Of a stretch of 64,000 nt of DNA, positions 1 to 62,400 are shown piece after piece. The notes below the pieces were generated by a model. The model was not told the DNA's origin. It saw only the letters and a list, made by a program, of their open reading frames with translations, and made no database searches. The translations under genes were made by a program, and so were the position numbers. Source of the stretch: Flaccisagitta enflata (lineage: Eukaryota); assembly GCA_965153355.1 (NCBI GenBank), contig OZ231126.1, positions 35,650,001 through 35,714,000 on the forward strand, in the 5' to 3' direction. The first letter of the stretch is position 1. Each line of letters opens with the position of its first letter.

Positions 1-3000
1 AAATGACTTCGAAAATCGTCTTTTGGCTGGGGACATTGCCATGTTATGGCAGGGACGTATGAACCAAGGGCTAAAATTCCTTTTAGTGACTGTTGTTGAT
101 ACCCAAAAAAAATTTCATGACCCTGAGAGCACTTTTTGGGTGTCAAATAACACTTTTTTGGAGACCATAGGACCCGAAAACGCGAAATTTGACAATTTTT
201 GGCCTTTTTTTCAAGTTATAACCTGAAAAAAAGTTGAAATATCGGCCAATTATTTTGCATGCACATGTTATAGACCTTAATAAAGATTAATGAAAAAAAA
301 TTTTTTTGCTAAAAAGATTTCCAGGTACCTAAATTAAGAAAAATTGGGTTTTTCGCGATTTTTTAAATGAAAAAGAATGTTGTTACCCCCCTTAAAGTTC
401 ACCGATTTGGACAAAATTTTTACTGGAGATACTTCACATTATGAAGTACCTCCATGCAAAATTTCATCAAAATCGGAGCACTCTAAGTACCAAAAATTGC
501 TTTCGGAAATCAAAAAATGGAAAAAAATGACTTCGAAAATCGTCTTTTGGCCGGGGCCATCGCCATGTTATGGCAGGAACGTAGGAACCAAGGGCTAAAA
601 TTCCTTTAAGTGACTGTTGTTGATGCCCCCAAAATCGTCTGTTTGTCTACTTGTCCGTTTGTCCGATGGGGCCTTTTCCTGCTCCACCTCCTCGTGGTGG
701 GCCCTGGCTCTGGTCTTTGATATTTGACATATAAAAAAATATGTTTTACTATATCACTGACTACCAAGCGAGCAGATGAAATTATTTTTTTTGGGGGGGC
801 GGAGGATCTCAGTCTATATTTCAAATTTTTTTATTAAAACAAGGCCAGATACACAGCAAGATAGTCGCGGACAATGCAAAAACTCAAAACGGTTAACTTT
901 AAGAGGGGTAAACATTTTTTTCCATAAAAAAAAATGTGAAAATCCCATTCTTTCTTAATTTTGGTGCCAAGAACTTGGTAACAAAAAACATTTAATATAA
1001 GGATTCTTCATTAGGGTCTGTTATGTGTTTATGAGAAACACTTGCCTTATTTCAACTTTGTCTAGGTGATAGCTTGAAAAAAGGGCAAAAAACGTCAAAT
1101 TTCGCGACTTTGGGACCAATGGTCTCCAAAATTTTTTTATTTGACACCCAAAAATTGCTCTCGGGGACATGAAATTTTTTTTGGGCATCAACAACAGTAT
1201 CTAAAAGGAATTTTGGCCCTTGGTTCATACATCCCTGCCATAACATGGCGATGTCTAGGGCAAAAAGACGATTTTCCAAGTCATTTTTTTTCATTTTTTG
1301 ATTTGCGAAAGCAATTTTTGGTACTTAGAGTGCTCCGATTTTTATGAAATTTTGCATGGTAGTACTCCATAATGTAAAGTATCTCCAGTAAAAATTTTGT
1401 CCAAATTGGTGAACTTTAAGGGGGGTAACAACATTCTTTTTCATTAAAAAAATCGCGAAAAACCCGATTTTTCCTAATTTAGGTACCTAGAAATGTTTGT
1501 AACAAAAAAATTTTTTATCATGAATCTTTATTAAGGTCTATTACATGTGCATGCAAAATAATTGGCTGATATTTCACCTTTTTTTAGGTAATAACTTGAA
1601 AAAAGACCAAAAATTTCAAAATTTCGCGGTTTTGGGTCCTACAGTCTCCCAAAAATTGTTATTTGACACTCAAAAAATGCTCTCAGAGTCATGAAATTTT
1701 TTTTTGGGCATCAACAACAGTCCCTAAAAGGAATTTTGGCCCTTGGCTCATACGTCCCTGCCATAACATGGCAATGTCTCCGGCCAAAAGACGATTTTCA
1801 GGTCCTTTTTTTTCCATTTTTTAATTTTTGAAGACAATTTTGGGTACTTAGAGTACTCTGATTTTGATGAAATTTTGCATGGAGGTACTTCGTAATGTGA
1901 AGTATCTTCAGTAAAAATTTTGTCAAAATCGGTGATTTTTAAGGGGGGTAACAACATTTGTTTTCATTTATAAAATCGAAAAAAAACCGATTTTTCCTAA
2001 TTCAGGTATCAATAAATTTTTTTTACCGAAAATTTTTTTTTCATGAATCTTTATTAAGGTCTACTTTATGTCCATGCAAAATTTTTGATTCATATTTCAA
2101 CTTCTTCTTAGGGTTTAACTTGAAAAAAGGCCAAAAATCGTCAAATTTTGTGATTTTGGGTCTGATGGTCTCCAAAAAAGTGTTTTTTGACACCCAAAAA
2201 ATGCTCTCAGGGTCATGAAATTTTTTTTGGGCATCAACAACAGTCACTAAAAGGAATTTTAGCCCTTGGTTCATACGTCCCTGCCATAACATGGCAATGT
2301 CCCTGGCCCAAAGATGATTTTCAAAGTCATTTTTTTCCATTTTTGGATTTTCGAAGACAATTTTGGGTACTTAAAGTGCTCCGATTTTGATGAAATTTTG
2401 CATGGAGGTACTTCATAATGTGAAGTATCTCCAGTAAAAATTTTGTCCAAATCGGTGAATTTTAAGGGGGGTAACAACATTCTTTTTCATTAAAAAAATC
2501 GCGAAAAACCCGATTTTTCTTAATTTAGGTACCTGGAAATCTTTTTAGCAAAAAAATTTTTTATCATGAATCTTTATTAAGGTCTATAATATGTGCATGC
2601 AAAATAATTGGCTGATATTTCAACTTTTTTTTAGGTTATAACTTGAAAAAAGGCCAAAAAATGTCAAATTTCGCGATTTTGGGTCCTACGGTCTCCAAAA
2701 AAAGTGTTATTTGACACCCAAAAAATGCTCTCAGGGTCATGAAATTTTTTTTGGGTATCAAAAACAGTCACTAAAAGGAATTTTAGCCCTTGGTTCATAC
2801 GTCCCTGCCATAACATGGCAATGTCCCCAGCCAAAAGATGATTTTCGAAGTCATTTTTTTCCATTTTTGGATTTTCAAAGACAATTTCGGGTACTTAAAG
2901 TGCTCCGATTTTGATGAGGTACTTCATAATGTGAAGTATCTCCAGTAAAAATTTTGATGAGGTACTTCATAATGTGAAGTATCTCCAGTAAAAATTTTGT

Positions 3001-3300
3001 CCAAATCGGTGAACTTTAAGGGGGGTAATACAATTTTTTTTTCTTTTCAAAATTTGCGAAAAACACGTTTTTTCCATATTTAGGTACCTAAAAAATTTCC
3101 GAGGTTCAAAATTTTTTACATACAACTAAATTAGGGTCTGATACATGTGTGTGCAAAATTTCATGGCTCTACTCCATGTCTAAGATCGGTTTAAGGGCCA
3201 AAAACGGTCAAAAATGGCTAATTTTGGCCATTTTGGGCACTTTTTTGGGGACGTTCGAACTAGCACCTGAAACTGGGTATAATGAACCTGGATCAGTGTT
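1..3300. repeat. Foldback-like element: tandem ~525-bp units in inverted arms (left arm runs off the window)
   Basis: Unit AAATGACTTCGAAAATCGTCTTTTGG...GGCAGGGACGTATGAACCAAGGG recurs at 1 and ~526 forward, and as its reverse complement about four times between ~1050 and ~3240. This explains the repeated near-identical short ORFs. Right boundary approximate. Confidence 0.75.
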
Positions 3301-3617
3301 CCCCAAGGTGATACGCACATTTTAAGACCCAACTTCATAGGTATCAGGGGACTCGCCCTTTTTATGAAGCCCTACAGACCAAACCGCAGACGGATCTGAC
3401 AAAACTTCGCTTTAGTACTATAAAACCCCGCCTGTTTTTCTATTTTCTCTATCTCCTTTTTCCGCCTTCAATTTCCGAGATCTTGCGACAAAAGTCATCC
3501 TCTTAAGATCTTCCCAGGAGCGGCACTCCCCGCTTCATCAAAATATGAACCCCTACAGTCAACCATACCTCTAAACACGTCCCTACCCCTAAGCTGACCC
3601 CTCTTCTACGTTGCCAT

Positions 3618-3681
<64 letters not shown>

Positions 3682-3763
3682 CGTTGATGAAAGGCGATGA
3701 TGATGATGATGATGATGACGATGATGATGATGATGATAGGCGATGATGATGATGATGATGAGG

Positions 3764-3842
<79 letters not shown>

Positions 3843-3876
3843 CAAATGATGATGATGATGATGATGATGATGATTA
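3618..3876. repeat. (GAT)n microsatellite
   Basis: Direct reading. Confidence 0.95.
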
Positions 3877-4127
3877 TGAATGGGCTGTGTTAAATGGACT
3901 GGGTAAACGGGGTGCTTCATAACAAGGCCGAATAAATGACACTAAATATGTAGCTTGTGGTTGTGGGAGGACAGGGGCAGTAATGCGGGTGAGCGGGGAC
4001 CGTTTTTCGAGGGGCAGGACCTCGTTTGCGTGTAGGCAGGGGGCAGTAATGCTCAGAAATCTCTGTTTTGGTCAATTTCACGTCATTCAAAATGAGGGTT
4101 ACCTACAGATGGTCCGATGGATCGACT

Positions 4128-5345
4128 TAACTATGGCAAAAATAAAAAAGACAGTGGTTTTCAAAATACCACCACATACCCATTTTTTTGAATGACTTCA
4201 AATCCTTTTAGGTGGTAATAGTGTGACAAATTTTTGATTCAGCAAAAAAATCAGAACTCAAAAAAGTTAATTTTTGTGGCCGTAGCATCAATTTTTGCAA
4301 AAATTGTCAAATGATAATTCGCCAATTGAATTAGATTTTTACATGACATACAGTCGCTACTGCGGGCTTATTTTTTGAGCAGCCTCAAAAAATCTTTTCA
4401 GGTGTTCACAGTATGTCAATTTTTTGACTCAGCAAAAAAATCAGAACTCAAAAAAGTTTATTTTTGTACGCGTAGCATAAATTTTTGTAAAAGTTGTCAA
4501 AATGAATTTTCTAAAAGTTGTAAAAATTGAGTTTTTTTCTTCCTTCTATTTCTGATGTTTTTTCACAAAAAGTGATGCTACGGGCCCAAAAATAAACTTT
4601 TTTGAGTTCTGATCTTTTTGCTGGTTAGATAATTTGATTCATTAACACCTCTGACAAAATTAGGCGAACTGGAATCAGAACTTGTTTATAATTGGGTTTT
4701 AATGTCCAAAACAGAGGTCCAGGTTAAGGATGAAATCAAAACATGTCAGTTCCATGAGGGTTTTACAAAAAAAGTTCAAGTTATGTCAATCAAGAGCTGC
4801 AAATAGCATCGTCAAATGATATCATGCAAATTCTAGGTTTTCATTAAATTCAAATTTTTTGGTAAAACCATTTTGTTTGACGCGGGGTTTTGCGACTTTT
4901 CGCTGCTGCCACTGACTGTATCTTGGTACTGTGGACTCATTTTTGTCCATCAGCGATACAAGAACCTGAGATTTGATATTTTCTTGCATTTTCGATGGTA
5001 AAATTAAAAGAAGTTTCATTTGTCTCACTATCTGAACTTTCCATGTCAAAATCGGCCAAAATCTTTCATTTCATTTTTTGCATATCACTTTCTGGGAGCC
5101 ACACATTTTCCCAGGGTCAAAAATCTGCCCCGGTTTGTGAAAATACTATATCTAAGCTCTCTCTGTGTCAACTTTCAGCCTACTAAATACATTATTTCTG
5201 TCAATTTTGCTCATTTCTCTAGTTCGCTTTATTATGTCAGGGTTGTTATTACTACTTAAAAGGATTTTAGGCAGATTAAAAAATTGAGTGCGTAGGACAA
5301 CATATAACATTGAAAATACTGTCTTTTTTTTCTTTGCCATGGTTA
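4128..5345. mobile_element. MITE with TIR (TA)ACTATGGCAAAAA
   Basis: TAACTATGGCAAAAATAAAAAAGACAGT at the left end matches ACTGTCTTTTTTTTCTTTGCCATGGTTA at the right end. The same termini bound 17666-18642. Confidence 0.65.
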
Positions 5346-5508
5346 CGAGACATACTCCTGAACGAAAGCGCGCTTAAAAATGTAAGGTGCGTTGCCACAC
5401 TTAATTCTGACCTTGTTCAAATCATCTAATCTTAGTTTTAAGTATGATTAAGAACTAAGGTAGAACTCTCCCCCGCTTAAGGCTAAACTGCAGATATCAC
5501 GAAAGAAG

Positions 5509-5610
<102 letters not shown>

Positions 5611-5741
5611 GCGTCTGCCACTGCGTTGGGATATTTTTTTCAGAGAACCTTACCTCTCTCTAAATCTCTCTTTTCGAGCGAGGGAGCTGTCAGGCAGGTT
5701 TCAGGTGCCTCTGATACTCCCCACAGTTTCGGCCTTGGAAG

Positions 5742-5747
5742 GTAAGT
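5742..5747 (+). promoter_or_regulatory. Consensus splice donor, possibly ending a non-coding first exon of the SUEL-Ig receptor gene
   Basis: GAAG|GTAAGT followed by pyrimidine-rich sequence. A candidate acceptor (TTGCAG, ~13559) lies upstream of the ATG at 13946. The link between them is inference only. Confidence 0.3.
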
Positions 5748-8700
5748 TGCTCTTCCTTCGTTTGCCTCCTCATTCTCTTATTCTTCCCACGCGTTCCCTT
5801 CCTCATCATTTATCTATCTTTCGTTCTTTCGTTCTTTCTTTCTTTCCTCTCGCCATTTCTTTTCTTTCCTTTTTGTCGCCATCATCATGCAAATGGACAG
5901 ACAAGAGAGAAATGTCATGATGTCATGACTAAGCGCCTAAGAATCGTTGAGAAAGAAGTTCGTTACTTTACGATTATTGTACTGGATTTTCTTCCTTCGT
6001 TATAAAAGAAGAAGTCAAGTCACACCCACGTTATTGAAGTCTGAAGTCGCAATTGATAGCACGAAGTTTTCATAAACTTAAGTCATCAATCAACTATACC
6101 GACCAGTTTCGTTTCCTTTATTTAATCACTCCCAGCTCATCAGTGTCCTTCTTTCATTCAATCCAGTGGAGACCGTAACCTCACTCACCCGATTTGCAGG
6201 AATGAGGAATGGTTGGATTATTCAAATGCGACCGTTACCCAAAAATCCCGACGAGACTTGTTTTTCACGATGACCGTCAGGTTTCCCCTCACTGACTCCA
6301 AGCGCAGTTATGCAAATCACAGACTTCCTCTGAAACTTCAAATTTTGACCAGTGACGTCTCTATCCCATTTGGCCTCTCTCTCAGTTTTTCTCCGCCACA
6401 TGCACAAGTTGAGCTAGCTGCATTATTTCTAGTCGCAAAAAAAAAAATTGAGTAACGAGGCTAAAAAAGACTCAATCTTGTGTAAAAAAACCTGGGGAAT
6501 CCAACCGTGACATTTTTAGAGCCCTACGTGGGGGCGTTCAGAAACGGCCCCCAAAAAAACACCCAAAAATGGCTATTTTTGGCCAAAATTTGGTACTTAA
6601 ATGGAGGCCAAGTGTTGAATTTCATACTTGGGGACACTTCAAGATGTAAGAGACTAGTAAAACAAGAATCATGATGATTGGGCTATTGTGGGGTACCTAA
6701 AAAGGCACAAAAAGGGCCCCTAAAGCGAAAAATAAATAGTTTTTTTTTCATTGAGGCCATAAAAATTTTTGGAATGCCTTCAAATTTTAAATGGAAGTTC
6801 CTTATAAATACAACTACCATCATGCAAAAATTTGTGGCCCTCCTTAAATGGCTTCATAGGAAAATTTGGCCACAAAAACAAAAAATCGCTAAAAAAAAAT
6901 CAGTTTTTTTAGTTCATTGACCTAAAAACAATATTTTAAGGTCAGGGTACCCCAATTTTTTTTTCTATTTTGCTAATATAAGATGTTTGGAGGTTCCAAG
7001 AAAAATTTCAGGCCATATTTCCAAAAAATGGCTGAGATATGACCATTTTAAGCGATGTGGTAAAAATGGAAAACGCTAAAAATGGTCATTTTTTGTGATT
7101 TTTTTAAACAATTGGGTGCAAAAAGGGGTCCCGTTTATTTTAATTCATAGTTGGGGACCTTACAAGATGTAAGAGATTATAAAAACAGGAATCATGATGA
7201 TGGGACTATTGTGGGGTACCTAAAAAGGCCCAAAAAGGGCCCTTAAAGCGAAAAATATGTAGTTTTTTTTAAATTGTGACTACAAAAATGAATGGAATGC
7301 CTTCCAATTGGAAATAGAAGTTCCTAATAAATGCAACTACCATCATGTAAAAATTTGTGGCCCCTCTTAAATGGCTTCATAGAAAAATTTGGCCACAAAA
7401 ACCAAAAATCGCTCCAAAAAAATCAGTTTTTCTTGTTCATTGACCTAAAAACAATATTTTAAGGTCAGGGTACCCCATTTTTTTTTCTATTTTGCTATTA
7501 TAACATGTTTGGAGGTTCCAAAAAAAATTCAGGACATATTTAAAAAAAATGACCATTTGAAGTGAAAGGGTAAAACTGAAAAACAACGATAATGGCCATT
7601 TTTTGAGATTCATTGAAAACATTTGGTACAAAAAGAGGTCCCAATAGTTTCAATTCATAGTTAGGGACACTTCAAGATGTAAGAGACTAGGAAAACAAGA
7701 ATCATTATGATGGGGCTATTGTGGGGTGTATTGGGGTGGGGGTGTATGGACTGACGGACCGACGGACGGACCGACGGACCGACGGACAAAGCGGGGTGTA
7801 GAGTCGCGTAGCACGCGACTAAAAAGAAATAACCATCCTGTAAACTGAGCCACGAGAGCCAGAGTGTTAACATCCTTTTTATTCAATAAAAATGGAAATT
7901 AACTGTGCTTACTCTGTTAAACAGTAACTGTACAGAGAATAACAAGAAAAACACATAATTTTGAAATAATTGTACAGGGACTGTTTATTTGCTGTGGCCA
8001 GGCCGAGTTGGCGGGTGCTGTATACAGTGTTTCATACAGGGACTAATTCTTGGAGTAGGATTGTAAGGAAGTTATAAGTGGCTGATCTCAGAAAGCCACT
8101 TTTTCAATTTTTCCTTACTCTTTTACAGCAAGAAAACCCAACACAATTTATTTTATGGATCGCTCACATATATCCATCACCAAAAATGACCATTTTTGGC
8201 ATTTTTCAGTTTTACCACGTTGCTTAAAATGGTGATATCTCAGCCATTTTATGAAAGTATGGCCTGAAATTTTTTTTGGAACCTCCAAACATCTTATATT
8301 AGCAAAACATAAAAAAAATTGGGGTACCCTGACCTTCAAATATTGTTTCTAGGTCAATGAACTGAAAAAACTAATTTTTTTGAACAATTTTTGTTTTTTT
8401 TTGGCCTAATTTTCCTATGAAGCTATTTAAGGAGGGCCAAAAATTTTTACATGATGGTAGTTGCATTAATAGGAACTTCCATTTCTTTTTTGAAGGCATT
8501 CCATTCATTTTTGTAGTCACAATGAAAAAAAAAACTATTTATTTTTTGCTTTAGGGGCCCTTTTTGGGCCTTTTTAGGTACCCCACAATAGCCCCATCAT
8601 AATGATTCTTGTTTTCCTAGTCTCTTACATCTTGAAGTGTCCCTAACTATGAATTGAAACTATTGGGACCTCTTTTTGTACCAAATGTTCTCAATGAATC

Positions 8701-9695
8701 TCAAAAAATGGCCATTATCATCGTTTTTCAGTTTTACCCTTTCACTTCAAATGGTCATATCTCAGCCATTTTTTGGAAATATGTCCTGAAATTTTTTTTG
8801 GAACCTCCAAACATGTTATAATAGCAAAATAGAAAAAAAAATTGGGGTACCCTGACCTTGAAATATTGTTTTTAGGTCAATGAACTTTTTGGAGCGAGTT
8901 GGTTTTTGTGGCCAAATTTTCCTATGAAGCCATTTAAGAGGGGCCACAAATTTTTACATGATGGTAGTTGCATTTATTAGGAACTTCCATTTCCAGTTGG
9001 AAGGCATTCCATTCATTTTTGTAGTCACAATTTAAAAAAAACATATTTTTCGCTTTAGGGGCCCTTTTTGGGCCTTTTTAGGTAATACAATAGTGATTCT
9101 GTTTTTATAATCTCTTACATCTTGTAGTGTCCAACTATGAATTAAAATAAACAGGACCCTTTTTGTACCTAATTTTTAAAAAATCACAAAAAATGACCAT
9201 TTTTAGCGTTTTCCATTTTCACCATGTCGCTTAAAATGGTCATATCTCAGCCATTTTTTGGAAATATGGCCTGAAATTTTTTTTGGAACCTCCAAACATC
9301 TTAAACTAGCAAAATAGAAAAAAAAATTGGGGTACCCTGACCTTAAAATATTGTTTTTAGGTCAATGAACTAAAAAAACTGATTTTTTTGGAGCGATTTT
9401 TGGTTTTTGTGGCCAAATTTTCCTATGAAGCCATTTAAGGAGGGCCACAAATTTTTGCATGATGGTAGCTGCATTTATAAGGAACTTCCATTTCAAATTT
9501 GAAGGCATTCCAATAATTTTTTTGGCCTCAATGAAAAAAAAACTATTTATTTTTCGCTTTAGGGGCCCTTTTTGGGCCTTTTTAGGTACCCCACAATAGC
9601 CCCATCATCATGATTCTTGTTTTAAAATTGTGTTAATGTTGGCAATGAGGAAAAAATGGGAAAGACAATAAAAACAATAAAAGACAAACAATGAA

Positions 9696-9804
9696 TTGTT
9701 GTACCTCAGCCGAGGCTTTGGACTCGCAGGAAAAAGGGTAAACAATACATTACCCCTAATCCTGGCCGGTTTAGGCCCCATCACCGTTACCCAAAGTACA
9801 ACAA
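9696..9804 (-). ncRNA. Twister ribozyme, circularly permuted (P5-type), with P1 reduced to GGCC
   Basis: The minus strand reads UUGUUGUACUUUGG G UAA CGGU GAUGG GGCC U^AA ACCG GC [CAGGA..UCCUG] CGAG UCCAAAGC CUCG G CUGAGGUACAACAA. Helices: P5 14 bp, P2 ACCG/CGGU, P3 hairpin, P4 CGAG/CUCG with L4 UCCAAAGC. Pseudoknots: T1 CCA/UGG and T2 GC/GC. The catalytic G (9782) and the U^A site (9773/9772) are in canonical positions. Confidence 0.85.
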
Positions 9805-10085
9805 ATAATAATGAGCAAAAAATACCAAAATTAAGAGAATACAAGAAATTGGAAGAATGAGGCAGCACAAAGTCGGGTCTAGAAATGAACTTAAAGTGAG
9901 GCAAAGAGTGAAGAGGAAGAGGATCAAAAGGATGAGTCTAGGTCAAAAAGAGAGTGGTCAAATAGAACAGAGTCAGATGGACAGAGGTCTTCAATTGGGG
10001 AAGACAGAGGTCCTGAAATGAAATTGAAAGGTGAAAAAACAGGGTTATGAAATGAAATGGAGATCATAGAGAGAAGAACAATTGA

Positions 10086-10193
10086 ATCACATAGATTACA
10101 TAATTCACTAAGTTAACATAGATTACATGATTTACATAGTTTACAATGTTTACATAGTTTACATAGTTTACATAGTTTACATAGTTTACATAA
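10086..10193. repeat. 12 x 9-bp tandem repeat (TTTACATAG consensus) in the retroelement 3' region
   Basis: Direct reading. Confidence 0.9.
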
Positions 10194-10213
10194 ATACAAA
10201 TAAGATTAAAAAT

Positions 10214-10584
10214 ATATAGACCAAAGCTATGTGAATAGACCAATGATCCGTATAGATGAAAAAGAGAGCCTGCTATGTGAATAGACCAAGCCCAGATTTC
10301 CATCAAAATACAAATTGAAATAGTTTACATATTTACAAATACAAATACAAATAGAGATCAGAGCTATGTGAATAGACCAATGATCCGTATAAATGAAAAA
10401 GAGAGCCTGCTATGTGAATAGACCAAGCCCCAATTTCCATCAAAATACAAAATAATAAATATGTACATAAATATATAAATAAATTACAAAATACAAAATA
10501 TAGGTCAAAGCTATGTGAATAGACCAATGACCTATACTGATGAAATTTGAGCCTGCTATGTGAATAGACCAAGCCCAAATTTCA
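10214..10584 (-). other. Array of six predicted RNA hairpins capped by invariant UUGGUCUAUUCACAUAGC
   Basis: GCTATGTGAATAGACCAA at 10226, 10272, 10363, 10409, 10510 and 10555 (+ coordinates). Each copy sits in a 9-15 bp stem, and several stem variants are G-U wobbles only on the minus strand. Confidence 0.8.
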
Positions 10585-10626
10585 CCAAAATACAGTAAAA
10601 ATTTCCTAGATAACTTAGATGTTTAA

Positions 10627-13023
10627 CTAATTTGCTGGCTGAGAAGAAATAGGAGGAGGAATATTCCTAGATATATTTATAAACCATTTATTAAAATCTA
10701 GAGGAATAGCCCATCTTTGAAATTCTGAAATATACTTATTTACTGATTTACAAAATTCCCTTTTCAGCATTCCAAAATTATAACCTCTGCCCAATAAAGT
10801 ATCCAATAAAAATTTGACCCTCTCCTCAAAATCACTCTGATAATTACAAAGTCTCTGAAATCGGATGATCTGACCATAAAAAACTTTATAACAAATCCTT
10901 GAATATAAGTTACTCTCAAGAAAGGGCAGGGAGATAACATGGAATGGAAAAAGATCAGTCTTACAAAAAACCTTAGTAATAATATTTCCTCCTTCTATTT
11001 TCACCTGCATATCTAAAACATTTGCTGCATCTAACTGGTCATTCTCCTGAGTTAAGGATAAACTGGGAGGATAAATATCCTGAGAAATTGTCAAAAAGTT
11101 TCTTAAATTGATTGACGTGCAATCGTCTCGATATCTTCTGAAAAATTTTAAACTTTCCGCTTCATCTCTTGCCCCTGCTTTTACCCTGTTATCAATATAT
11201 TTGAATTCATCTACCATTAGAGAGCAATCTGAAAGCCAACCTGAACTCTTGCCGCCCATAATTACCCCCAAAGTTTGCTTAAAGATATGCCCAAAAGCCT
11301 TTATGTGGGTATTACGGATCAAATAATCAACCATCTCAAGAAATTCACCAACTGAATACACCAGTCCTTCGGAGTCGTTTGCAACCCACCAAGACTTCTC
11401 ATGACCAATCCTTAGAAATCCCATACCACAGTTCTTACTAAGCTTAGCAAGTAACCAATTAATATTAGACATCAGATGATCATGGTCAAAAAGGGTGTAT
11501 AAAGTTGAAAAATCATTGATCGAGATAGTATCAGCGACACCATATGCCAAACTAAACATATCCTTAACTTCAATACTAGTCTGAACATCAAAATAATAAC
11601 GTACACCCGAAAACTCCATATTCTTATTGCACAAATTCCTGAAATGTTCCTTACACATTTTCAAAACACTAGCTACAATCCTATCCAATTTTGAAGTGAC
11701 CGTGCTTACATTTCCCGCTATGTAACGCATCTTAGGTGGATTCTTATGAAATTTCGGAGTTTGATACAAAAGTGCCAGTTTTTCCTCCCTATTGTTGGGC
11801 TCAATCCTAAACTGCAAAAGATCCGTCTTAATTCTCGAAACTATCTCATTCTCTGTGTTTGGTGAAAAACTGTAAGTCTCATTCCCGGGGTTCTCATTAT
11901 TCAGTCCTAACTCTTCAGCCAATTTTAGAAAATAAAATTTCTTGCATGTGAAAGCAAAATTCCCAGCGGCCTTATCTACAACAGTGATAACATACCTATC
12001 CTGAAGCTTCGCTAACTCTGCCTTACATTCCTGACGTGTAAGCACTGGCTGGCTATAACTGGTACCTTCCTTACAAGCCATTAACTTATTACTGAAATTC
12101 CTGAAGAGAGCGCCCTTCCATTTTTTAAAAGCCGTCCGAGAAATTCTGAACTTACCTGACAGTTTCACAACAAAGCTGTCTATTTCCTTTTTCACCTGTG
12201 TCCTGATATTCTCAACGTTAAGATAAGGGTTCTCTCTAAACTTCGTACCAAAAGAGCAAATCCCACGTAGCTGAGGGTCACCAATGATTTCAAGATCACC
12301 AGTGATGATATGTCCAAAACGATCATGTTTAAAGGGCGAATCATCGCATGAACAGTCCATATTCTGGATATCAGCATAAGAAAGACTACCAGTATTTCTC
12401 AAAACTTTATTATAATTTAAAATCTTAGATCCAATAGTCTTTCCAAAGCTATAGATCAGCCGAATATCAACTTTCTCCTTTATGTCAGATGGCAGGTGTT
12501 TCTGCACATCTGAACAGTTGATGATCGAATTAAGATTCACATCACCCATAATCTTATGCAAGAATTTTGCATTCCAAGAAACAGATTCCCTCATACTCTT
12601 TGATGGTTTTACCTTTTGCAAAAAATCTACCCGGGACTTGATAACAAAGCGTAAATTCTCATTCAAAGTTGAAAAATGGGTCGACATGAAAAATCGTTCC
12701 AAATATCTCCTTTGAGTTGAGAAAACTATGTCCTCAATCCCGCGTAAACCAATTGCCTCAAAGAGCAGAGCCAATTCATTTCTGAAATTCAAAAAACTCT
12801 CATCAGTTATGCCACCTCTACGCTTTTTCCTATGCCTGCCATTCCTATGTTTACCTGAACCTTCCTGACAGATATTTACAACTTTATACATATTGTAATC
12901 AACATATCGACCATCCGTAACATTCCCATGCAGACCAAAACCGCTAATCTTATCATTCAATCCTAGAGGATGAGCAGTACGTAGATAGCTAATCCAAAAA
13001 AGTTCTCTTTCAACTCTTCTCTT
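10627..13023 (-). CDS. Naiad-type PLE polyprotein, 5'-truncated: end of GIY-YIG endonuclease, CxC linker, reverse transcriptase
   Basis: The frame stays open upstream of the listed 777-aa ORF, giving KRRVERELFWISYLRTAHPLGLND (GIY-YIG C-terminal E-x-x-W-I...P-x-G-L-N). It continues with DCSCDDSPFKHDRFGHIITGDL (CxC linker), DKAAGN, PKFHKNPPKMRYI, DFSTLY, GVIMGG, RYRDD, LDM and GQIIRF. No internal stop; ends in TAG. Confidence 0.9.
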   Translation of the reverse strand, partial: KRRVERELFWISYLRTAHPLGLNDKISGFGLHGNVTDGRYVDYNMYKVVNICQEGSGKHRNGRHRKKRRGGITDESFLNFRNELALLFEAIGLRGIEDIVFSTQRRYLERFFMSTHFSTLNENLRFVIKSRVDFLQKVKPSKSMRESVSWNAKFLHKIMGDVNLNSIINCSDVQKHLPSDIKEKVDIRLIYSFGKTIGSKILNYNKVLRNTGSLSYADIQNMDCSCDDSPFKHDRFGHIITGDLEIIGDPQLRGICSFGTKFRENPYLNVENIRTQVKKEIDSFVVKLSGKFRISRTAFKKWKGALFRNFSNKLMACKEGTSYSQPVLTRQECKAELAKLQDRYVITVVDKAAGNFAFTCKKFYFLKLAEELGLNNENPGNETYSFSPNTENEIVSRIKTDLLQFRIEPNNREEKLALLYQTPKFHKNPPKMRYIAGNVSTVTSKLDRIVASVLKMCKEHFRNLCNKNMEFSGVRYYFDVQTSIEVKDMFSLAYGVADTISINDFSTLYTLFDHDHLMSNINWLLAKLSKNCGMGFLRIGHEKSWWVANDSEGLVYSVGEFLEMVDYLIRNTHIKAFGHIFKQTLGVIMGGKSSGWLSDCSLMVDEFKYIDNRVKAGARDEAESLKFFRRYRDDCTSINLRNFLTISQDIYPPSLSLTQENDQLDAANVLDMQVKIEGGNIITKVFCKTDLFPFHVISLPFLESNLYSRICYKVFYGQIIRFQRLCNYQSDFEERVKFLLDTLLGRGYNFGMLKREFCKSVNKYISEFQRWAIPLDFNKWFINISRNIPPPISSQPAN

Positions 13024-13945
13024 TCTAGTCTCTTACATCTTGAAGTGTCCCCAACTATGAAATTGAACACTTGGCCACTATTTAAGTACCAAATTTTGGC
13101 CAAAAATACCTAAAAATAGCCATTTTTGGGTGTTTTTTGGGAGCCGTTTCTAAACGCCCCCGCGTAGGGCTCTAAAAATGTCACGGTTGGATTCCCCAGG
13201 TTTTTTTACACAAGATTGAGTCTTTTTTAGCCTCGTTACTCAATTTTTTTTTTTTTTTTTAACGTAGCCCAACTTGTGCATGTGGCGGAAAGTGACCAGT
13301 TTTCACTCGTATTTGATGTCTGGTCGATTGACATTTTCAAACATTTCGCTTGAATCTTTCGTAATCATTCCTCTCATTTTCGAATGAAGATGGATGAAAA
13401 CGAAATGCTGCTTGCATCACCAACACTTTTTTTGCCATCCTCCACTCTTTCAAATCTGTAATTGGAAATAAAAGGGTACTACTGCCTGGATTAAAAAAAG
13501 AAAGATGAAAATTTCTTTCTGATTTAGACAAATCAAGTTTCCGGTTTCTTAAATTGCAGACCCAGAGAAAAAGAAATAAAGATTAGAAACGTGGATTGAG
13601 GAAAACGTTTTTAGCTACCGGGCAAATAATAAAAACTTTCAAAATCTGGTTTTTGAGAAGACGGCACTTAGACGCGATGTGTCTAACGGAAAACTCGCTC
13701 CTGGTCTAGAAATTTCAAAACTCGAAAATTCAAAAAAAGGTGATCCACAAGAAAAGAATGTCGCGAAGAAAGAAAGGAAAGAATAACAAAGGAAGTTGAT
13801 TTATTCTTTTTGTCCTATCATTTCCGATGCGTTCCTTTTCAACAATCAAAAAAATCGGAAGAAAAACATTTTCATTTATCATAAACAACATTCATGATAA
13901 AATCTAATAACATTCATTATAAAATCTACAAATAACTTGTCAAGA

Positions 13946-14177
13946 ATGAAGATGGCATCTCGTCTTTTTGAGAGAGGCGTTCTCCAGAACGTCTCTTTGA
14001 TGACTGTTTTAATGATTTTTCTTGCCATTAATGGACAATCCTCGGCGCTGAACCACTCCGTTAACAAATGCATCGATTCCAACGCACCGGACAGTTTTCT
14101 ACTCAATTGCTCTCATGGAGCCGTTATCAGTATCGACTCAGTCTCAGCCATTTATCTGTATACGGACGTGCAAAAAG
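13946..14177 (+). CDS. SUEL-lectin/Ig/Ig transmembrane receptor, coding exon 1 (signal peptide and start of SUEL domain)
   Basis: MKMASRL...SLMTVLMIFLAINGQSSA hydrophobic leader, then LLNCSHGAVISIDSV. Donor G|GTAAT, phase 1. Confidence 0.8.
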
Positions 14178-14282
14178 GTAATCTGAGTTGAAACAACTTT
14201 ACAAAAGGAGGCCACAACTCCCCAATATTTAAAGAATAGTCTCGCAAGCTTTCCGAGCTTTCCGAGTTGCTCACGCCCATTC

Positions 14283-14589
14283 TTTTTAGATGCGTCCGTC
14301 AGGAACGCATCTCTATAAGAGGGTCTGTCCGTCCCTCCGTCGGTCCGTCCGTCGGTCCGTCCGTCGGTCCGTCCGTCCGTAACGCCTGTGCGAAAACCGC
14401 GTTTCTCGGCTGAAATAGGCCACGGTGAGATCCTGCACTGAATCTAATGATCAACAAACGTGTTTTGAGAGCCTCCACTTTTCTGTCGCTTCATCTGTCT
14501 GTCCATCGTTATGTCCATACATCTGACATATTTAGTCAATACACGCAGAGACACAGTCCGGACGCATCGTTGCCCGGTCGGGCTTGTTT
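14283..14589 (+). mobile_element. Helentron/DINE-1-like non-autonomous element (HINE)
   Basis: T-run start, AGATGCGT..ACGCATCT inverted repeat, (GTCC/GTCG)n tract, subterminal GACGCATC and a ...GGGCTTGTTT end. A related copy lies on the minus strand at 34651-34929. Confidence 0.65.
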
Positions 14590-15559
14590 ATGGACAAACG
14601 AAATGCCTACCTGACTGAACTATCTGCTTGACTGCATACCTCATTAGTATAGGCTCATCCTGTTTTGTCTGAGATGTACCTCATATTTAAAGTATAGGGT
14701 GGACTGGCCGATATAGCTATACCATCAAGTATGCATAAAATATTTTACCAATGTTATAATCAAAGACTACGTGTGCACAATCAAAGGACCACCTTAAAGA
14801 AACTCTTTCATAGAGCGCTTTTTGAAAAAAATCAAATTTTTGTTTTATATGATGTATTTGCATCATGTCTAATGATCCTTTGGCATCATATGACATTGGA
14901 CAACATTACATTGCAACCCAAAAAAAACTAAGACAAGGACAAAAGCCTGTGGAGCGTTAACTGGTGTTTAATGCGCACCCATCACAACTATTCTTAGAAT
15001 TATCAAAAATTCCACTTCAACCCTTATCAAAGAGCGGCTCAACAGATACAAATCATGAGCATGAAAAACCTATGATTTTAGGCTATTTATGAACTGTGCA
15101 AGTGACAAGAAAGAGTACCAGATTTGTGTGCTGAATTGTGCCCCCACATTCCTCACACCTTTCTGATCTTCCCATTGTAAAATGCTCATAACATCCATAG
15201 CTTTAAATCAAGATTTTTCTCACCAATTGAGAATAATCCACCAAGTTGTAAACTCTTAGTCAACAGATACAAATTAAGAGCAAGAAAAACCTATATATGT
15301 ATCATATTTGCATCATATGTAGCACACTGGCTTCATATGATGCACTAGCATCATAAGCTAATGCATCATATAATGTATGATGCTAGTGCATCATATGATG
15401 CAAATGCATCATGTTCAACTAAAATGTCATTGTTTTCAAAAAGCGCCCTATGAATGATTTTCTTCTGAATGGTTATTGAATTATACAAACATGAGTTTGA
15501 CATAACTGCAAAAAGACCTAGAGTAATGTCATTCTCATCCTGAATGGTCCCTTAGACAG

Positions 15560-15780
<221 letters not shown>

Positions 15781-15878
15781 AACCCAGTGACACAGACAGG
15801 GTCAAAGGATCTAAACCTGTAGGGAAGAAACAAGCAAATTTGTGGCTGTGCATACTAACGTAGTGATGTGCAGCCCCC

Positions 15879-17193
15879 TTTTTGGGCAGCGGCCCAAAAG
15901 GGGCCGATGAGTATGCTTTCACACAGGGGAAATTTCTCCTCCTCCTTCTTCTCTGTCCACCCCCCTCAAAACTCAAATTCTAGCCTTGAGGCTCAAATTC
16001 TAGCCTTGAGGCCCAAATTCTAGCCTTGAGGCCCGAATTCTAGCCTTGAGGCCCGAATTCTAGCCTGGAGGCCAAAATTCTAGCCTCAAAGCCCAAATTT
16101 CAGCCTTAGAGCCTAAATTTCAGCCTCGAGGCTAAATTTCTAGCTGGCCCAAATTCTAGCCTCAAGGCCCAAATTCAAGTCTTGAGGCCCAAATTCTAGC
16201 CTCAAAGCCCAAATTTTAACCTCAAGGCTCAAATTCCAACCTCTAGGCTCAAATTCTAACCTTGAAGCCCACATCCTAGTCTTGAGGCTCACATCCCAGC
16301 TTTGACGCTCAAACCCCAGCCTCAAGGCTTAAGTAACAGCTTAAAGGCTCAAATCACAGCCTTGTGACTCAAACCACAGCACTATGGTCTGAGAGCACAC
16401 CACCTCAGGACAAGAAAAATTACGGCAGCACTTTGGACCTATATTATAGGAAAAAACTGGTACAGTCGCTTACTGAAAGCAAGAAAATATATGGTTTTAC
16501 CTCCGCCCTAGCTCATCCAAAGCCTCATTTTCCTCCTTGAAGTTAACTACTTTGCTCAAAATTAAATGTTGCAAAAAATGTTTTTTTGGTTTCATTTGTT
16601 ACTTTTCTAGACTTCAAAAATGATACTAAGAATATAAAGGAAGACACAAACTTTTTGAAAAAGCTTCAGGGTGGACTGAACACGACTTGTGTAAAATTTG
16701 GTAACCTTGCTCCCAGATTTGAAGGACCTATAAAAAAAACCCCGCAAATTTGCAAACTAAAATGAAAAAGTTTTTGTCAATTTTCGCGCCTTCAAAATAG
16801 TCAACCTAATGACTTCCTGAGCAAAAAAATGTCCTTAGATGAATCAGGGCGGGGGTAAAACCCTATATAGATGTGATCTAAACATACTAGGGGACATTTG
16901 TATACCATAGCTATCATCCCTAGGTACTGCCTTATAGTTTTGTCTTGGTATGATATGCTCACGGATCTATGTGCACAGCCTTTAGGCTCAAATCAAAGCC
17001 TAACGGCGCAAATTACAGTTTTGAGTCTCAAATCACAACTCAAAGCGCAGATCACAGGCTCACGGCTCAAAACTTACTAAGCATAGGTCATCTGCCCCTT
17101 TGGGGCCGCTGCCCCTCTCACCATCACACATCCACATATACTTAAATAGGGGCAACGGGTACCGCTGACCATCTAACGCTTATGCGACTATTT
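15879..17193 (+). mobile_element. HINE-like element (GGGCAGCGGCCC family) with internal 20-bp minisatellite and nested MITEs
   Basis: Inverted GGGCAGCGGCCC(C)AAAGGGG..ATGCT ends and (TAGCCTTGAGGCCCAAATTC)n at ~15980-16380. A nested TA-flanked TIR element lies at 16492-16863. Relatives occur at 39510-39998 and 48128-48616. Confidence 0.6.
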
Positions 17194-19183: not shown

Positions 19184-21455
19184 TACGTCCCATGAAGCGC
19201 CCCAAACTTCGACACTAACTCTCACCAATCTTACCATAGTTGAGGCTTGGTAAAAAAATATTCCATGTAAAATTTCAGGCCTCTGGAACAGCAGGAACCT
19301 TTGTTAGGGTGACTATGAAGTTTCCATAGAAATCTATGGTAGAGACAAAATTTGCATAATAGAAATATTGATTCCAATGCTAATTTAATACAAACTTCAG
19401 CATCACCCTAACAAAGGTTCCTGCTATCTCAGAGGCCCAAAATTTTGCATGGAATATTTTTAGTCGCGTGCACGCGACTCTACAACCCGCTCTGTCGGTC
19501 GGTCGGTCGGTCCGTCGGTCGGTCGGTCGGTCGGTAACAATTTGCTTTTTTGTGTCGTTTTTGGTCATTTTTGGTTGCTTTTAGTCATTTTTGGTCATTT
19601 TTGGTTGCTTTCAGTCATTTTTGGTCATTTTTGGTCATTTTGGTCATTTTGGTCATTTTGGTCATTTTGGTCATTTTGGTCATTTTTGGTCATTTTTGGT
19701 CATTTGTGATCATTCATAATCATTTTTAATCATTTCTAATCATTTTTAATCATTTTTGATCATTTTTGGTCATTTTTGGTCATTTTGATCATTTTCGTCA
19801 TTTTGGCCATTTTGGTCATTTTGGTCATTTTTGGTCATTTTTGATCATTTTTGATCATTTTTTGATTATTTTGGGTCATTTCAGTTTATTTTTGATCATT
19901 TTTTTTGTCATTTTTGGTCATTTTTGGTCATTTTGGTCATATTGGTCATTTTGGTCATTTTTGATCAATTTTGGTCATATTTAATCATTTTTGGTCATTT
20001 TTGGTCATTTTTGGTCATTTTGGGTCATTTTGGGTCGTTTGGGTCATTTTGTGTCATTTTTGGATATTTCTGGCTATTTTTGATCATTTTTTGTCATTTT
20101 TGATCTTTTTTGATCATTTTTGGGCATTTTGGTCATTTTGGTCATTATTGGTCATTTTTGGTCATTTTTGGTCATTTTTGGTCATTTTTGGACTTTTCAG
20201 GTCATTTGAGGTCATTTTAGGTCATTTTAGGTCACTTTGATCATTTTTGGTCATTTTTGGTCATTTTTGGTCATTTTTGGTCATTTTTGGTCGTTTTTGT
20301 TCATTTTTGTCATTTTTGGTCATTTTTGGTCATTTTTGGTCATTTTTGGTCATTTTTGGACATTTTTGTTCATTTTTGGTCATTTTGGTCATTTTTGGTC
20401 ATTTTTGATCATCTTTGGTCATCTTTGGTCATTTTGGCCATATTGGTCATTTTTGGTCATCTTTGGTCATCTTTGGTCATTTTGGTCATTTTGGTCATTT
20501 TGGTCATTTTTGGTCATTTTTGGTCATTTTTGGTCATTTTGGTTAAAGTCTGCTGGTTAAAGTCTGCTGGTTAAATCTGCTGGTTGAAGTCTGCTGGTTT
20601 AAATCTAATGGTTTAAGTCTGCAGGTCTAATGGTTTAAGTCTGCTGGTTTAAGTCTGCTGGTTAAAATGATATTGAAGATAAGTATGGTTTAAGTCTGGT
20701 TTAAGTCTGGTTTAAGTATGGTTTAAGTCTGGTTTAAGTCTGGTTTAAGTCTGGTTTAAGACTGGTTCATGTCTGATTTATGTCTGGTTTAGGTCTGGGT
20801 TAGGTCTGGTGTATGTCTGGTTTGTGTCTGGTTTTTGTTTGATTTAGGTCTGATTTAGGTCTGATTTAGGTCTGGTTTTGGTCTGGTTTTGGTCTGGTTT
20901 GAGTCTGGTTTGAGTCTGGTTTGAGTCTGGTTTGAGTCTGGTTTGAGTCTGGTTTGAGTCTGGTTTGAGTGGTTTGAGTCTGGTTTGAGTCTGGTTTGAT
21001 TCTAGTTTGAGCCTGGTTTGAGCCTGGTTTGAGCCTGGTTTCGGTCTGGTTTAAGTCTGGTTTGAATCTGGTTTGAGTCTGGTTTGAGTCTGGTTTGAGT
21101 CTGGTTTGAGTCTGGTTTGAGTCTAGTTTGAGTCTGGTTTCAGTCTGGCTTAAATCTGGTTTATGTCTGGTTTATGTCTGATTTAGGTCTGGTTTCGGTC
21201 TGGTTTAATTCCGGTTTGAGTCTGGTTTGAGTCTGGTTTGAGTCTGGTTTGAGTCTGGTTTGGGTCTGGTTTGGGTCTGTTTTGGGTTGCTTTTAAGTCT
21301 GATTTTCGATAAAAAGATACAATAAGGAGTCAGGTCAGTTCAGTTATTTTTGTCCTGCACGCGACTTATAGGTGTTGGCCTTGTTTTACCAAGCCTCAAC
21401 TATGGTAAGATTGGTGAGAGCCATAGTCCAAGTTAGGGGCGCTTCAAGGGACATA
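19184..21455. mobile_element. Palindromic MITE split by a HINE insertion
   Basis: 19184-19460 plus 21386-21455 form an inverted-repeat element. A copy lacking the insertion lies at ~37043-37336. Confidence 0.7.
19461..21385 (+). mobile_element. HINE/DINE-like element with expanded internal satellites
   Basis: Starts AGTCGCGTGCACGCGACT plus (GTCG)n and ends GCACGCGACTTATAGGTGTTGGCCTTGTT, inserted in a T-run. Internal (GGTCATTTTT)n at ~19555-20545 and (GTCTGGTTTRA)n-type repeats at ~20545-21300. Confidence 0.75.
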
Positions 21456-59429: not shown

Positions 59430-62400
59430 TCACTGGATTCCTTGTCTCTTCTGCCCAAGGCAGATTTGCCACTGGATTCCTTATCCCCTCTGCCTGAGGA
59501 AGGCTTGTCAATGGATTCTTTGTCCCTTCTGCCCAAGGAAGACTTGTCAGTGGTTACCTTGTCCCTTCCACCCAAGGCAGACTTGTTATTCAATTCCTAG
59601 CCACAGGATTTGTCACTGGATTCCTCTGAGGCAATGTTTTCAAATCATCATATGACAACTATTTACAATTTTTTTCCCTGACTTAACATTTGTTACCATC
59701 TCTTAACATCGTCACTTTTCATCATATGCTAGTCACATTGACATCATATAACAACTATTTACAATTTTTTTCCTTGACTTAACATTTTTTACCTTCTCTT
59801 AACATCGTCACTTTACATCATATGCTAGTCAGATGAAATTCTCTTCTCTGACTCTTTTATTTTTATGTAGGAAATATGGGGGCGCTTATTATTCTCGCGC
59901 TTATGAGTGTAGGGCGCTTATGTTTCTCGCGCTTACCATTCTGAAGCTTCTGTTTCTCGTGCTTCCACTGAGGCGCTTATTATTCTGGTACCCCTTAATT
60001 CCTTATCCCTTCTGACCAAGGCAGACTTTTCACAGGATTCCTTGACACTTCTGTTGAAGGTTAGCTTGTCACTTGATTCCTTGTCCCTTCTGCCGGCAAG
60101 ACATGCCACTGGATCTCTTGTCTCTTCTGCCCAAGGCAGACTTGCTACTGGATTCCTTGTCCCTTCTGCCAAAGGCAGACTTACAACTGGATTCCTTGTC
60201 CCCTAAGCCAAAGGCCACCAGATTCCTTGTCCCTTATGAAAAAGACAGATTTGTCACTGGATTCCTTGTCCCTTCTGAACAAGACAGATTTGCCACTGGA
60301 TTCCATGTCCCTTCCAAACAAGACAGATTTGCCACTGGATTCCTAGTCCCTTCTGCCCAAGGCAGACTGGTCACTGGATTCTTTGTTCCTTCTGCCTGAG
60401 ACAGACTAGTCAATGGATTCCTTGTCCCTCCTGACTGAGGCAGACTTGTCCATGGATCCCTTGTCCCTCCTGACTGAGGCAGACTTGTCAATGGATTCCT
60501 TGTCCCTTCTGACTGAGGCAGACTTGTCAATAGATTCCTTGTCCATTCTGACTGAGGAAGACTTGTCAATGGATTCCTTGCCCCTGCTGACTGAGGCAGA
60601 CTTGTCAATGGATTCCTTGTTCCTGCTGACTGAGGCAGACTTGTCAATGGATTCCTTGTCCCTTCTGACTGACGCAGACTTGTCAATGGATTCCTTGTCC
60701 CTTCTGACTGAGGCAGACTTGTCAATGGATTCCTTGTCCCTTCCGACTGAGGCAGACTTTTCAATGGATTCTTTGTCCCTGCTGACTGACGCAGACTTGT
60801 CAATGGATTCCTTGTCCCTTCTGACTGAGGCAGACTTGTCAATGGATTCCTTGTCCATTCTGACTGAGGAAGACTTGTCAATGGATTCCTTGTCCCTGCT
60901 GACTGAGGCAGACTTGTCAATGGATTCCTTGTTCCTGCTGACTGAGGCAGACTTGTCAATGGATTCCTTGTCCCTTCTGACTGACGCAGACTTGTCAATG
61001 GATTCCTTGTCCCTTCTGACTGAGGCAGACTTGTCAATGGATTCCTTGTCCCTTCCGACTGAGGCAGACTTGTCAATGGATTCCTTGTCCCTTCCGACTG
61101 AGGCAGACTTTTCAATGGATTCTTTGTCCCTGCTGACTGAGGCAGACTTGTCAATGGATTCCTTGTCCCTTCTGACTGAGGCCGACTTGTCAATGGATTC
61201 CTTGTCCCTTCTGACTGAGGCAGACTTGTCAATGGATTCCTTGTCCCTTCTGACTGAGGCAGACTTGTCAATGGATTCCTTGTCCCTTCTGACTGAGGAA
61301 GACTTGTCAATGGATTCCTTGTCACTTCTGACTGAGGCAGACTTGTCAATGGATTCCTTGTCCCTTCTGACTGAGGCAGATTTGTCAATGGATTCCTTGT
61401 CCCTTCTGACTGAGGCAGACTTGTCAATGGATTCCTTGTCCCTTCTGACTGAGGCAGACTTGTCAATGGATTCCTTGTCCCTTCTGACTGAGGCAGACTT
61501 GTCAATGGATTCCTTGTCCCTTCTGACTGAGGCAGACTTGTCAATGGATTCCTTGTCCCTTCTGACTGAGGAAGACTTGTCAATGGATTCCTTGTCCCTT
61601 CTGACTGAGGCAGACTTGTCAATGGATTCCTTGTCCCTTCTGACTGAGGCAGACTTGTCAATGGATTCCTTGTCCCTTCTGACTGAGGCAGACTTGTCAA
61701 TGGATTCCTTGTCCCTTCTGACTGAGGCAGACTTGTCAATGGATTCCTTGTCCCTTCTGACTGAGGAAGACTTGTCAATGGATTCCTTGTCCCTTCTGAC
61801 TGAGGAAGACTTGTCAATGGATTCCTTGTCCCTTCTGACTGAGGCAGACTTGTCAATGGATTCCTTGTCCCTTCTGACTGAGGCAGACTTGCCACTGGAT
61901 TCCTTGTTCCTTCTGCCCAAGGCAGACTTGCCACTGGATTTTTTGTCCCTTGTGCCCAAGGCAGGCTGGCTACTGGATTCCTTGTCCCTTCTACCCAAGG
62001 CAGACTTGCCACTGGATTCCTTGTCCCTTCTGCCCAAGGCAGACGTACCACTGGATTCCTTGTCTCTTCTGTACAAGGCAGACTTGCCACTGGATTCTTA
62101 TCCCTTCTGCCTGAGGTAGGCTTGTCAATGGATTCTTCGTCCCTGCAGCCCAAGGAAGACTTGTCAGTGGTTACCTTGTCCCTTCCACCCAAAGCAGACT
62201 TGTTATTCAATTCCTAGCCACTTGATTCATCACTGGATTCCTTTCCACTTAATTCCTTATCCCTTCTGACCAAGGCAGACTTTTCACTGGATTCCTTGAC
62301 GCTTCTGTCGAAGCTAAGCTTGTCACTTGATTCCTTGTCCCTTCTGCCAGCAAGACTTGCCACTGGATCTTTTGTCTCTTCTACCCAAGGCAGACTTGCC

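Follow-up and report, generated by a model that had tools for sequence, protein, structure and literature searches.

Among the closest described systems to the RNA motif analyzed here are the type-P5 twister ribozymes (RF02684; via PMC5408937 and PMC6154101). The motif lies on the minus strand, at 9804-9696, of a stretch of Flaccisagitta enflata DNA (contig OZ231126.1, positions 35,650,001 to 35,714,000; hereafter the window, by which we mean the whole 64,000 nucleotides [nt] analyzed, counted from the first letter). The motif resembles type-P5 twisters in its UAA loop, its P2 helix, its GCC T2 strand, an optional P3 helix, and a P4 helix with a loop ending in AAGC. It also shares the GA-N-GG T1 strand and termini that leave through P5, a helix that PMC6154101 reports for only about 1% of annotated twisters. 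The window motif differs from RF02684 in having no P1 hairpin, no Rfam score, a paired change in L4 and L1, and a P5 of 14 base pairs (bp).

A second comparison is with the engineered "mini-twister," which likewise has no P1 in an otherwise intact core and which, in the excerpts of PMC5408937 available, is reported to cleave off a single nucleotide at almost the wild-type rate. The mini-twister was built from two strands and has a 5' nucleotide that is free, whereas the window motif is a natural, permuted single chain with a 4-nt tether before the cut. The twisters at the 5' ends of RTE retrotransposons (the T-variants of Perere-3, PMC8501958, and truncated but competent twisters, PMC7761336) are also eukaryotic, tied to a retroelement, present in many copies, and weak in P1 or missing it. 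However, these are type-P1 ribozymes at the element 5' end, where the flanking target-site duplication supplies a P1 strand, whereas the window motif is of type P5, has its cut site in mid-motif, and lies 3' of a Penelope-like open reading frame (ORF) with no RTE ORF downstream.

Minimal or type-I hammerheads of Penelope-like elements (PLEs) and retrozymes form the last group for comparison (PMC4209133 and PMC6765202, both in excerpt). They share with the motif a cut-adjacent helix shrunk to a short palindrome, a PLE setting, and a multi-copy state. The earlier note on this DNA had drawn on these hammerheads, and its account of them agrees with the excerpts, in which metazoan and PLE hammerheads have a helix III of 1 to 2 bp and a palindromic loop of 2 to 4 nt and work as dimers. 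The ribozyme classes nevertheless differ, as hammerheads need helix III and twisters need no P1, and PLE hammerheads are paired in pseudo-long terminal repeats (pseudo-LTRs) or tandem repeats, whereas the window motif is present once in 64 kb. In the excerpts of PMC6765202 and PMC13725137, two of the papers naming both twisters and PLEs, we found no link between them, and the former names hammerheads only.

A type-P5 twister layout with a 4-nt linker in place of P1

We consider the motif to be a genuine twister-class RNA in the rare P5-opened permutation, with P1 cut to a 4-nt linker, and predict that it would cleave itself as a monomer, a reading to which we give a probability of roughly 0.6. 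It is most likely the natural counterpart of the engineered mini-twister. The anatomy of the sequence, its rarity by chance, the presence of many copies, and the pattern of variation are shown directly, and the fold, the cleavage, and the monomeric mode of action are inferred.

Read by hand, with coordinates and pairings checked, the minus strand follows the circularly permuted type-P5 layout in the order CGGU-GAUGG-GGCC-UAA-ACCG-GCC, and because both ends exit via P5, the arrangement is a type-P5 circular permutation. In this permutation, P1 is expected as a hairpin between the T1 strand and UAA. Just as the earlier note had placed them, GAUGG (9782-9778) and UAA (9773-9771) are separated only by GGCC (9777-9774), a linker that is its own reverse complement and too short, at 4 nt, for a hairpin-closing P1. 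A 2-bp P1 within GGCC was ruled out, as its loop would be 0 nt. The 14 pairs of P5 comprise a 9-bp helix, UUGUUGUAC/GUACAACAA, and five pairs between UUUGG and CUGAG, three of which are G.U. The GCC of the T2 strand (9766-9764) forms with G9767 a second GGCC (9767-9764), which is the partner of the linker in the predicted minimum-free-energy (MFE) fold.

Both loop elements expected of a twister were found. L1 carries N-A-A at the cleavage site and is followed by P2 (UAA at 9773-9771, ACCG/CGGU), and L4 (consensus GUCCCAAGC) is able to form T1 and T2 through CCA/UGG and GC/GC, respectively. For T1, U9780, G9779, and G9778 could pair with A9719, C9720, and C9721 of L4; we take the consensus partners to be three G of L1 with three C of L4. 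Relative to the tabulated Schistosoma twisters, whose L1 is GAGGG and whose L4 is GUCCCAAGC (PMC8501958), the motif has GAUGG and GUCCAAAGC, in which both partners of the third T1 pair are altered. Together, the G-to-U change in L1 and the C-to-A change in L4 would keep that pair, converting G-C to U-A.

Such a combination is rare by chance. A descriptor requiring UAA-N4-GC, an L4 of YCCNAAGC flanked by 3 or more of the 4 P4 pairs, and GANGG after a 4-bp P2 partner, from which P5, P3, and the pseudoknots with their T1 compensation were left out, matched both strands of the window once, at the motif. It also matched once among 300 first-order-Markov simulated 64-kb sequences with the dinucleotide make-up of the window. 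Furthermore, the 121-nt stretch has a folding z score of -4.57, and none of 200 shuffles folded as well.

In the proposed mechanism, the 14-bp P5 of a minus-strand transcript would clamp both ends, P2, P3, and P4 would form, and L4 would dock on GAUGG (T1) and GCC (T2). Self-cleavage at the U9773/A9772 bond would then take place within one molecule, and the only role of GGCC would be to connect the T1 strand with U9773. In the excerpts of PMC5408937, P1 is conserved but dispensable, and P1-less twisters cleave at almost the wild-type rate, which bears out the claim of the earlier note that twisters with a shortened P1 can stay active; PMC6154101 also states that P1 is dispensable. A large high-throughput assay of type-P1 twisters found the length, stability, and imperfections of P1 to be unrelated to cleavage (PMC11662667, in excerpt). 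Since P1 is reported to be dispensable, the monomer should already cut, and the simplest reading is a monomeric P1-less twister.

Several observations weigh against a monomeric twister. The conserved P1 stem adjoining the cleavage site is missing, and Rfam 15 gave no twister match at the gathering score in the whole window and no twister at an E value of 10 or less over 9400-10100, for which the missing P1 and the 36-nt insertion are plausible reasons. The published activity without P1 was obtained with two-strand constructs, in which the 5' end is free, rather than with a 4-nt tether. A pseudoknot-free folding model favors another fold (MFE of -46.9 compared to -37.9 for the native helices), giving P2 and P4 pair probabilities below 0.01 and pairing the linker in cis with probabilities of 0.71 to 0.95. 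Because such models do not score T1, T2, or tertiary contacts, this alternative fold raises the possibility of an off-state and does not refute the twister fold. In the data that we examined, no pile of molecule ends was seen, although contigs are unable to show such ends. Finally, the sequence conservation described below may be due in part to unitig assembly and recent amplification.

As a separate observation, the best Rfam match at the motif (over 9400-10100) was a chance match of the microRNA model mir-1502 (E = 0.88) over the P3 hairpin.

If the motif cleaves, it would be a natural single-chain twister without any P1, the genomic counterpart of the laboratory mini-twister, and a form that current models miss, as Rfam gives it no score. 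It would also place a twister beside a Naiad element, a clade noted in print, in the available part of PMC8557442, for lacking hammerheads.

Copies, variation, and searches for relatives

We aligned contigs of four public runs to 9600-10080 at 80% likeness or more. These were a DNA run of organism A (X5), a marine metagenome (X2), a metatranscriptome (X7), and raw reads of poly-A RNA (X24). The matched contigs numbered 292 in X5, 59 in X2, and 3 in X7. One X7 contig of 525 nt spans 9622-9807 and may reflect DNA in the RNA library. None of the 12.2 million raw reads of X24 matched, which has no bearing either way; cleavage-made ends are not visible in contigs.

A repeat of about 416 nt, present in many copies in a marine planktonic animal, has the motif as its conserved center. 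In X5, the summed word depth reaches 42,584 at 9702-9718, 50,444 at 9753-9769, and 59,607 at 9770-9786, compared to 1,371 to 16,059 in the flanks, so that the peak falls on the twister core; unitig depth is not copy number, and these values support "many copies" only. The motif is flanked by loose contig ends at 9690 and 9820, and the unit of about 416 nt by others at 9624 and 10037; near both ends of this unit, other repeat copies diverge from the window.

Variation among the copies avoids most of the motif. Of the substitution sites listed at a frequency of at least 5%, 9 fall in 9617-9695, 23 in 9811-10041, and 5 within the motif. All five of the latter are in P3, four in the apical loop (9744, 9746, 9747, and 9748) and one at G9756, where A is the X5 majority (17,471 of 25,122) and converts a G.U with U9735 to A-U. 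Listed sites thus amount to 0 of 79 positions in the core outside P3, 5 of 36 in P3, and 32 of 310 in the flanks (core versus flanks, Fisher p = 5e-4; p = 0.048 if three further sites beyond those listed all fell in the core). Judged from these alignments, the pattern looks like constraint on the ribozyme core. It was seen in close paralogues only, with no double compensatory change among them. All of these paralogues keep the linker as GGCC, and the contigs of three runs show no linker variant reaching 5%, but the linker is too short for a constraint test of its own: at the variation rate of the flanks, an unconstrained stretch of 4 nt would be invariant 65% of the time.

No second copy of the motif was found within the 64 kb by pattern, descriptor, or blastn searches, and no aligned contig matched two places of the stretch. 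Neither did we find a diverged relative of the motif in viral, prokaryote-genome, or fetched metagenome DNA. A family-specific pattern with a free linker had no match in viral_contigs. In prokaryote genomes, the same pattern had 19 matches, compared to about 17 expected by chance (18 fixed bases, 596 Gb), none of which had twister features, and these were rejected.

A generic pattern for 4-nt-linker twisters, with a GCC-to-L4 spacing of 5 to 35 nt that misses long-P3 forms like the window motif, had 53 matches in viral_contigs. Only one of these, L061, had 4 of 4 P2 pairs, and we took it as a chance match, as it was without GUAA, a closing helix, or T1 complementarity. Hence, the pattern searches of viral_contigs and prokaryote genomes found no other natural 4-nt-linker twister for comparison. 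One bacterial P5-type twister scored above the Rfam threshold (L109, 41.7 bits, 1 of 150 genomes). Its P1 has 5 to 6 bp with a GCAA cap, and therefore the window form is a clear variant.

Our literature search found no permuted single-chain twister with a 4-nt linker, although the supplements of PMC11662667 and PMC8501958 may list such forms. As far as the searched literature goes, we did not find an earlier report of a P1-less, type-P5, single-chain twister with a 4-nt linker. The features of the motif and its neighbors are collected in Table 1.

Table 1. Coordinates of the twister motif, its repeat unit, and the adjacent Penelope-like element in the window
Feature	Positions	Strand	Remarks
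P5 5' strand	9791-9804	-	UUGUUGUAC 9804-9796 and wobble-rich UUUGG 9795-9791; in predicted minimum-energy fold
L2 3' strand GUAA	9787-9790	-	Compare GUAAA of Schistosoma twisters (PMC8501958 Table 1)
P2 3' strand CGGU	9783-9786	-	Partner ACCG 9770-9767
L1 3' strand / T1 strand GAUGG	9778-9782	-	Consensus GAGGG
Linker GGCC in place of the P1 hairpin	9774-9777	-	4 nt; no variant reaching 5% in contigs of three runs
L1 5' strand UAA	9771-9773	-	Expected scissile bond U9773/A9772, from the twister consensus
P2 5' strand ACCG	9767-9770	-	Pairs with CGGU 9786-9783
L2 5' strand GCC (T2)	9764-9766	-	Possible pairs G9766-C9715 and C9765-G9716
Optional P3 hairpin	9728-9763	-	36 nt: outer AGGA/UCCU, inner 7 bp, 8-nt loop
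P4 and L4	9711-9726	-	CGAG 9726-9723 / CUCG 9714-9711; loop UCCAAAGC 9722-9715
P5 3' strand	9696-9709	-	CUGAG 9709-9705 and GUACAACAA 9704-9696
Multi-copy repeat unit with twister, ~416 nt	9622-10037	-	Depth profile, loose ends 9624 and 10037, contig pieces
3' region of the Naiad copy	10083-10583	-	Three ~137-nt repeats with a common motif, then 9-nt microsatellite 10083-10199
5'-truncated Naiad-type Penelope-like element, reverse transcriptase part	10627-13026	-	CxC, DKA, and YRDD motifs; GIY-YIG missing

Attenuation, decay, and dimer activation as alternatives

The alternative that fares best, although we regard it as unlikely, is that the linker acts as a cis attenuator. In this model, a GGCC/UAAACC/GGCC hairpin would hide the cut site and block P2 and T2, making the ribozyme slow or conditional. 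The linker would then matter as the complement of G9767-GCC9764 (the end of P2 plus the T2 strand), and its palindromy would be a by-product of pairing with a segment fixed by the conserved GCC. The hairpin is present in both the MFE and centroid folds, with the linker pair probabilities given above. Locally, it reaches -6.0 compared to -4.0 for the P2 hairpin, and forcing the linker to be unpaired costs 3.4 kcal/mol. However, the folding models that favor the hairpin ignore the pseudoknots and tertiary contacts that decide twister folding, and comparative support is absent. Moreover, attenuation is compatible with a monomeric twister and would only modulate it.

Next, and also improbable in our view, the motif may be an inactive relic, derived from a twister that lost P1 by deletion and was then amplified within a repeat, in which case its uniformity would reflect young age. 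The lack of an Rfam match, the departures of L4 and L1 from the consensus, and the preference of the nested model for a non-native fold are consistent with a relic. So is the lack of any sign of cleavage or of poly-A RNA, with the null result in X24 being uninformative. A relic accounts less well for the distribution of variation, as the flanks vary at about 10% of sites and the core outside P3 at none, and the changes within the motif either fall in a loop or preserve a base pair. Furthermore, the departures in L1 and L4 compensate each other, and the depth peak on the core with its bracketing loose ends looks as if the module were common to several repeat contexts.

The explanation proposed in the earlier note, dimer activation, appears slightly more doubtful again. 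Two copies would swap halves, so that the P5 strand, P2', and T1 in the 5' half of one copy find their partners in the 3' half of the other, and the two GGCC linkers would form a shared 4-bp P1 between composite active sites. By analogy with Penelope-element hammerheads, tandem or abundant transcripts would be cut preferentially. Should the palindrome indeed drive dimerization, a shared mode of regulation would have arisen in two unrelated classes of ribozyme within one kind of mobile element.

The linker has the palindromic sequence at a helix or loop that is characteristic of dimer ribozymes of the Penelope-hammerhead kind, and GGCC is a perfect G/C palindrome. Given the window base composition, a 4-mer is palindromic by chance with a probability of 0.068, or of 0.006 if it must also consist of G and C alone, so the palindromy carries little weight by itself. 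The swapped dimer can be drawn as a nested structure and would therefore be topologically valid. In a nearest-neighbor model without pseudoknots, it is predicted at -85.7 compared to -75.8 for two native monomers, 9.9 kcal/mol better, and the cofold MFE of -102.2, compared to -93.8 for two monomer MFEs, is also a swapped dimer. A shared P1 is conceivable geometrically, as P1 stacks coaxially on the T1-P2-T2 end (PMC6154101), and crystals have contained intermolecular twister dimers as artifacts (PMC5408937, in excerpt). The invariance of the linker at the 5% level also fits, and so does the neighboring Penelope-like element, which belongs to the class whose hammerheads use the dimer design. 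Because the neighboring ORF is of the Naiad type, the context fits the hammerhead analogy better than the earlier note could know.

Other findings argue against dimer activation. A dimer design presupposes a required helix that is too short within one molecule, and P1 indeed cannot form in cis, yet P1 is reported not to be required, unlike hammerhead helix III, so the monomer should not be off. A dimer design also presupposes a nearby second copy, as a tandem or a pseudo-LTR pair, but the stretch holds one copy in 64 kb, and no contig fits two places. In the cofold optimum, the two molecules pair in another register, UGGG with CCUA around G9776, which buries the T1 strand and the cleavage site, and the cis hairpin between the linker and GGCC 9767-9764 (-6.0) matches the GGCC self-duplex (-5.9) in stability. 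The invariance of four positions is, as noted, expected in 65% of cases without constraint. No independent natural 4-nt-linker twister or diverged relative was found for a comparison of palindromy, and our literature search found no paper on dimer-dependent twisters.

The near-palindrome used by the cofold (9776-9780/9772-9775, minus strand, with a G9776.G9776 mismatch) exceeds GGCC in length and shares positions with the T1 strand and cut site. Least probable of all is that the twister both converged on the copy-number-sensing design of Penelope hammerheads and constitutes the "missing" ribozyme of the hammerhead-less Naiads or of their non-autonomous passengers.

The Naiad-type element and other surroundings of the repeat unit

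A 777-codon ORF (12960-10627) on the same strand ends 817 nt upstream of the motif. Its relatives number 101 at an E value of 0.001 or less, with GIY-YIG (PF01541) present in the longer ones. In these, the portion from about residue 188 to the C terminus aligns to 13026-10669, and therefore the endonuclease is N-terminal in the family and missing from the window copy. The ORF protein (P0001) contains VVDKAAGN, CSC, and YRDD. In the available part of PMC8557442, the marks of the Naiad clade are DKA in place of DKG, a CxC motif, and an N-terminal GIY-YIG in full-length copies, and Naiads are stressed as being without canonical hammerheads. These motifs identify the neighboring ORF, at the level of sequence, as a Penelope-like element of the Naiad clade.

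We fetched 36 related metagenome loci as a test of whether the twister is the Naiad's own ribozyme. A relaxed descriptor, which sees only eukaryote-like L4 loops, had no match in these 36 loci, and blastn of the 3' region of the window against them matched only a repeat motif of the 3' untranslated region (UTR), not 9696-9810. An Rfam search of 29 of the 36 loci (L001-L029) gave no match at an E value of 1 or less in L001-L009 and only a spurious small-RNA match in L010-L029, with Rfam being blind to the window's own twister. All of these are weak tests, as the closest Naiad loci extend at most about 770 nt past the ORF, whereas the window twister begins 817 nt past the stop. No Naiad relatives were present in viral_contigs. 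In X5, the twister core is about 40 times deeper than the Naiad-side flank at 10059-10080, and this depth profile, together with the unit boundary at 10037, argues that the twister unit is a repeat separate from the Naiad. We conclude that the twister unit and the Naiad copy are juxtaposed in the same orientation; a functional link, e.g., of the twister unit as a non-autonomous passenger, is possible.

Each of the ~137-nt repeats in the 3' region of the Naiad copy (10211-10583, minus strand) bears a motif of about 16 nt resembling GGTCTATTCACATAG. This motif recurs several times in the 3' flanks of L001, L007, L008, and L009, whose proteins are 60 to 69% identical to that of the window copy, and it appears by sequence comparison to be a conserved repeated 3'-UTR motif of Naiad relatives. 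Between the Naiad 3' region and the twister unit lies the 9-nt microsatellite, with about 13 units (10083-10199). Naiads are reported to prefer microsatellite targets.

On the other side of the motif, a satellite of about 504 bp occupies 8166-9635 and 7000-7727. Three direct copies abut the twister unit, and inverted copies lie 0.7 to 2 kb off, with arms of up to 317 nt that are 91 to 98% complementary. An RTE element downstream of the motif was ruled out, as there is no ORF of at least 200 amino acids below 10627.

Elsewhere in the window, a short-period tandem array at 19670-20530 gave many weak blastn matches to the T-rich segment 9807-9831 just 5' of the twister. An ORF at 60234-62210 on the minus strand matches the second winged-helix domain of NFRKB (PF25793, E = 8e-12), which suggests that it is an exon of an animal host gene, and ORFs of more than 550 codons are also present on the opposite strand of the same interval.

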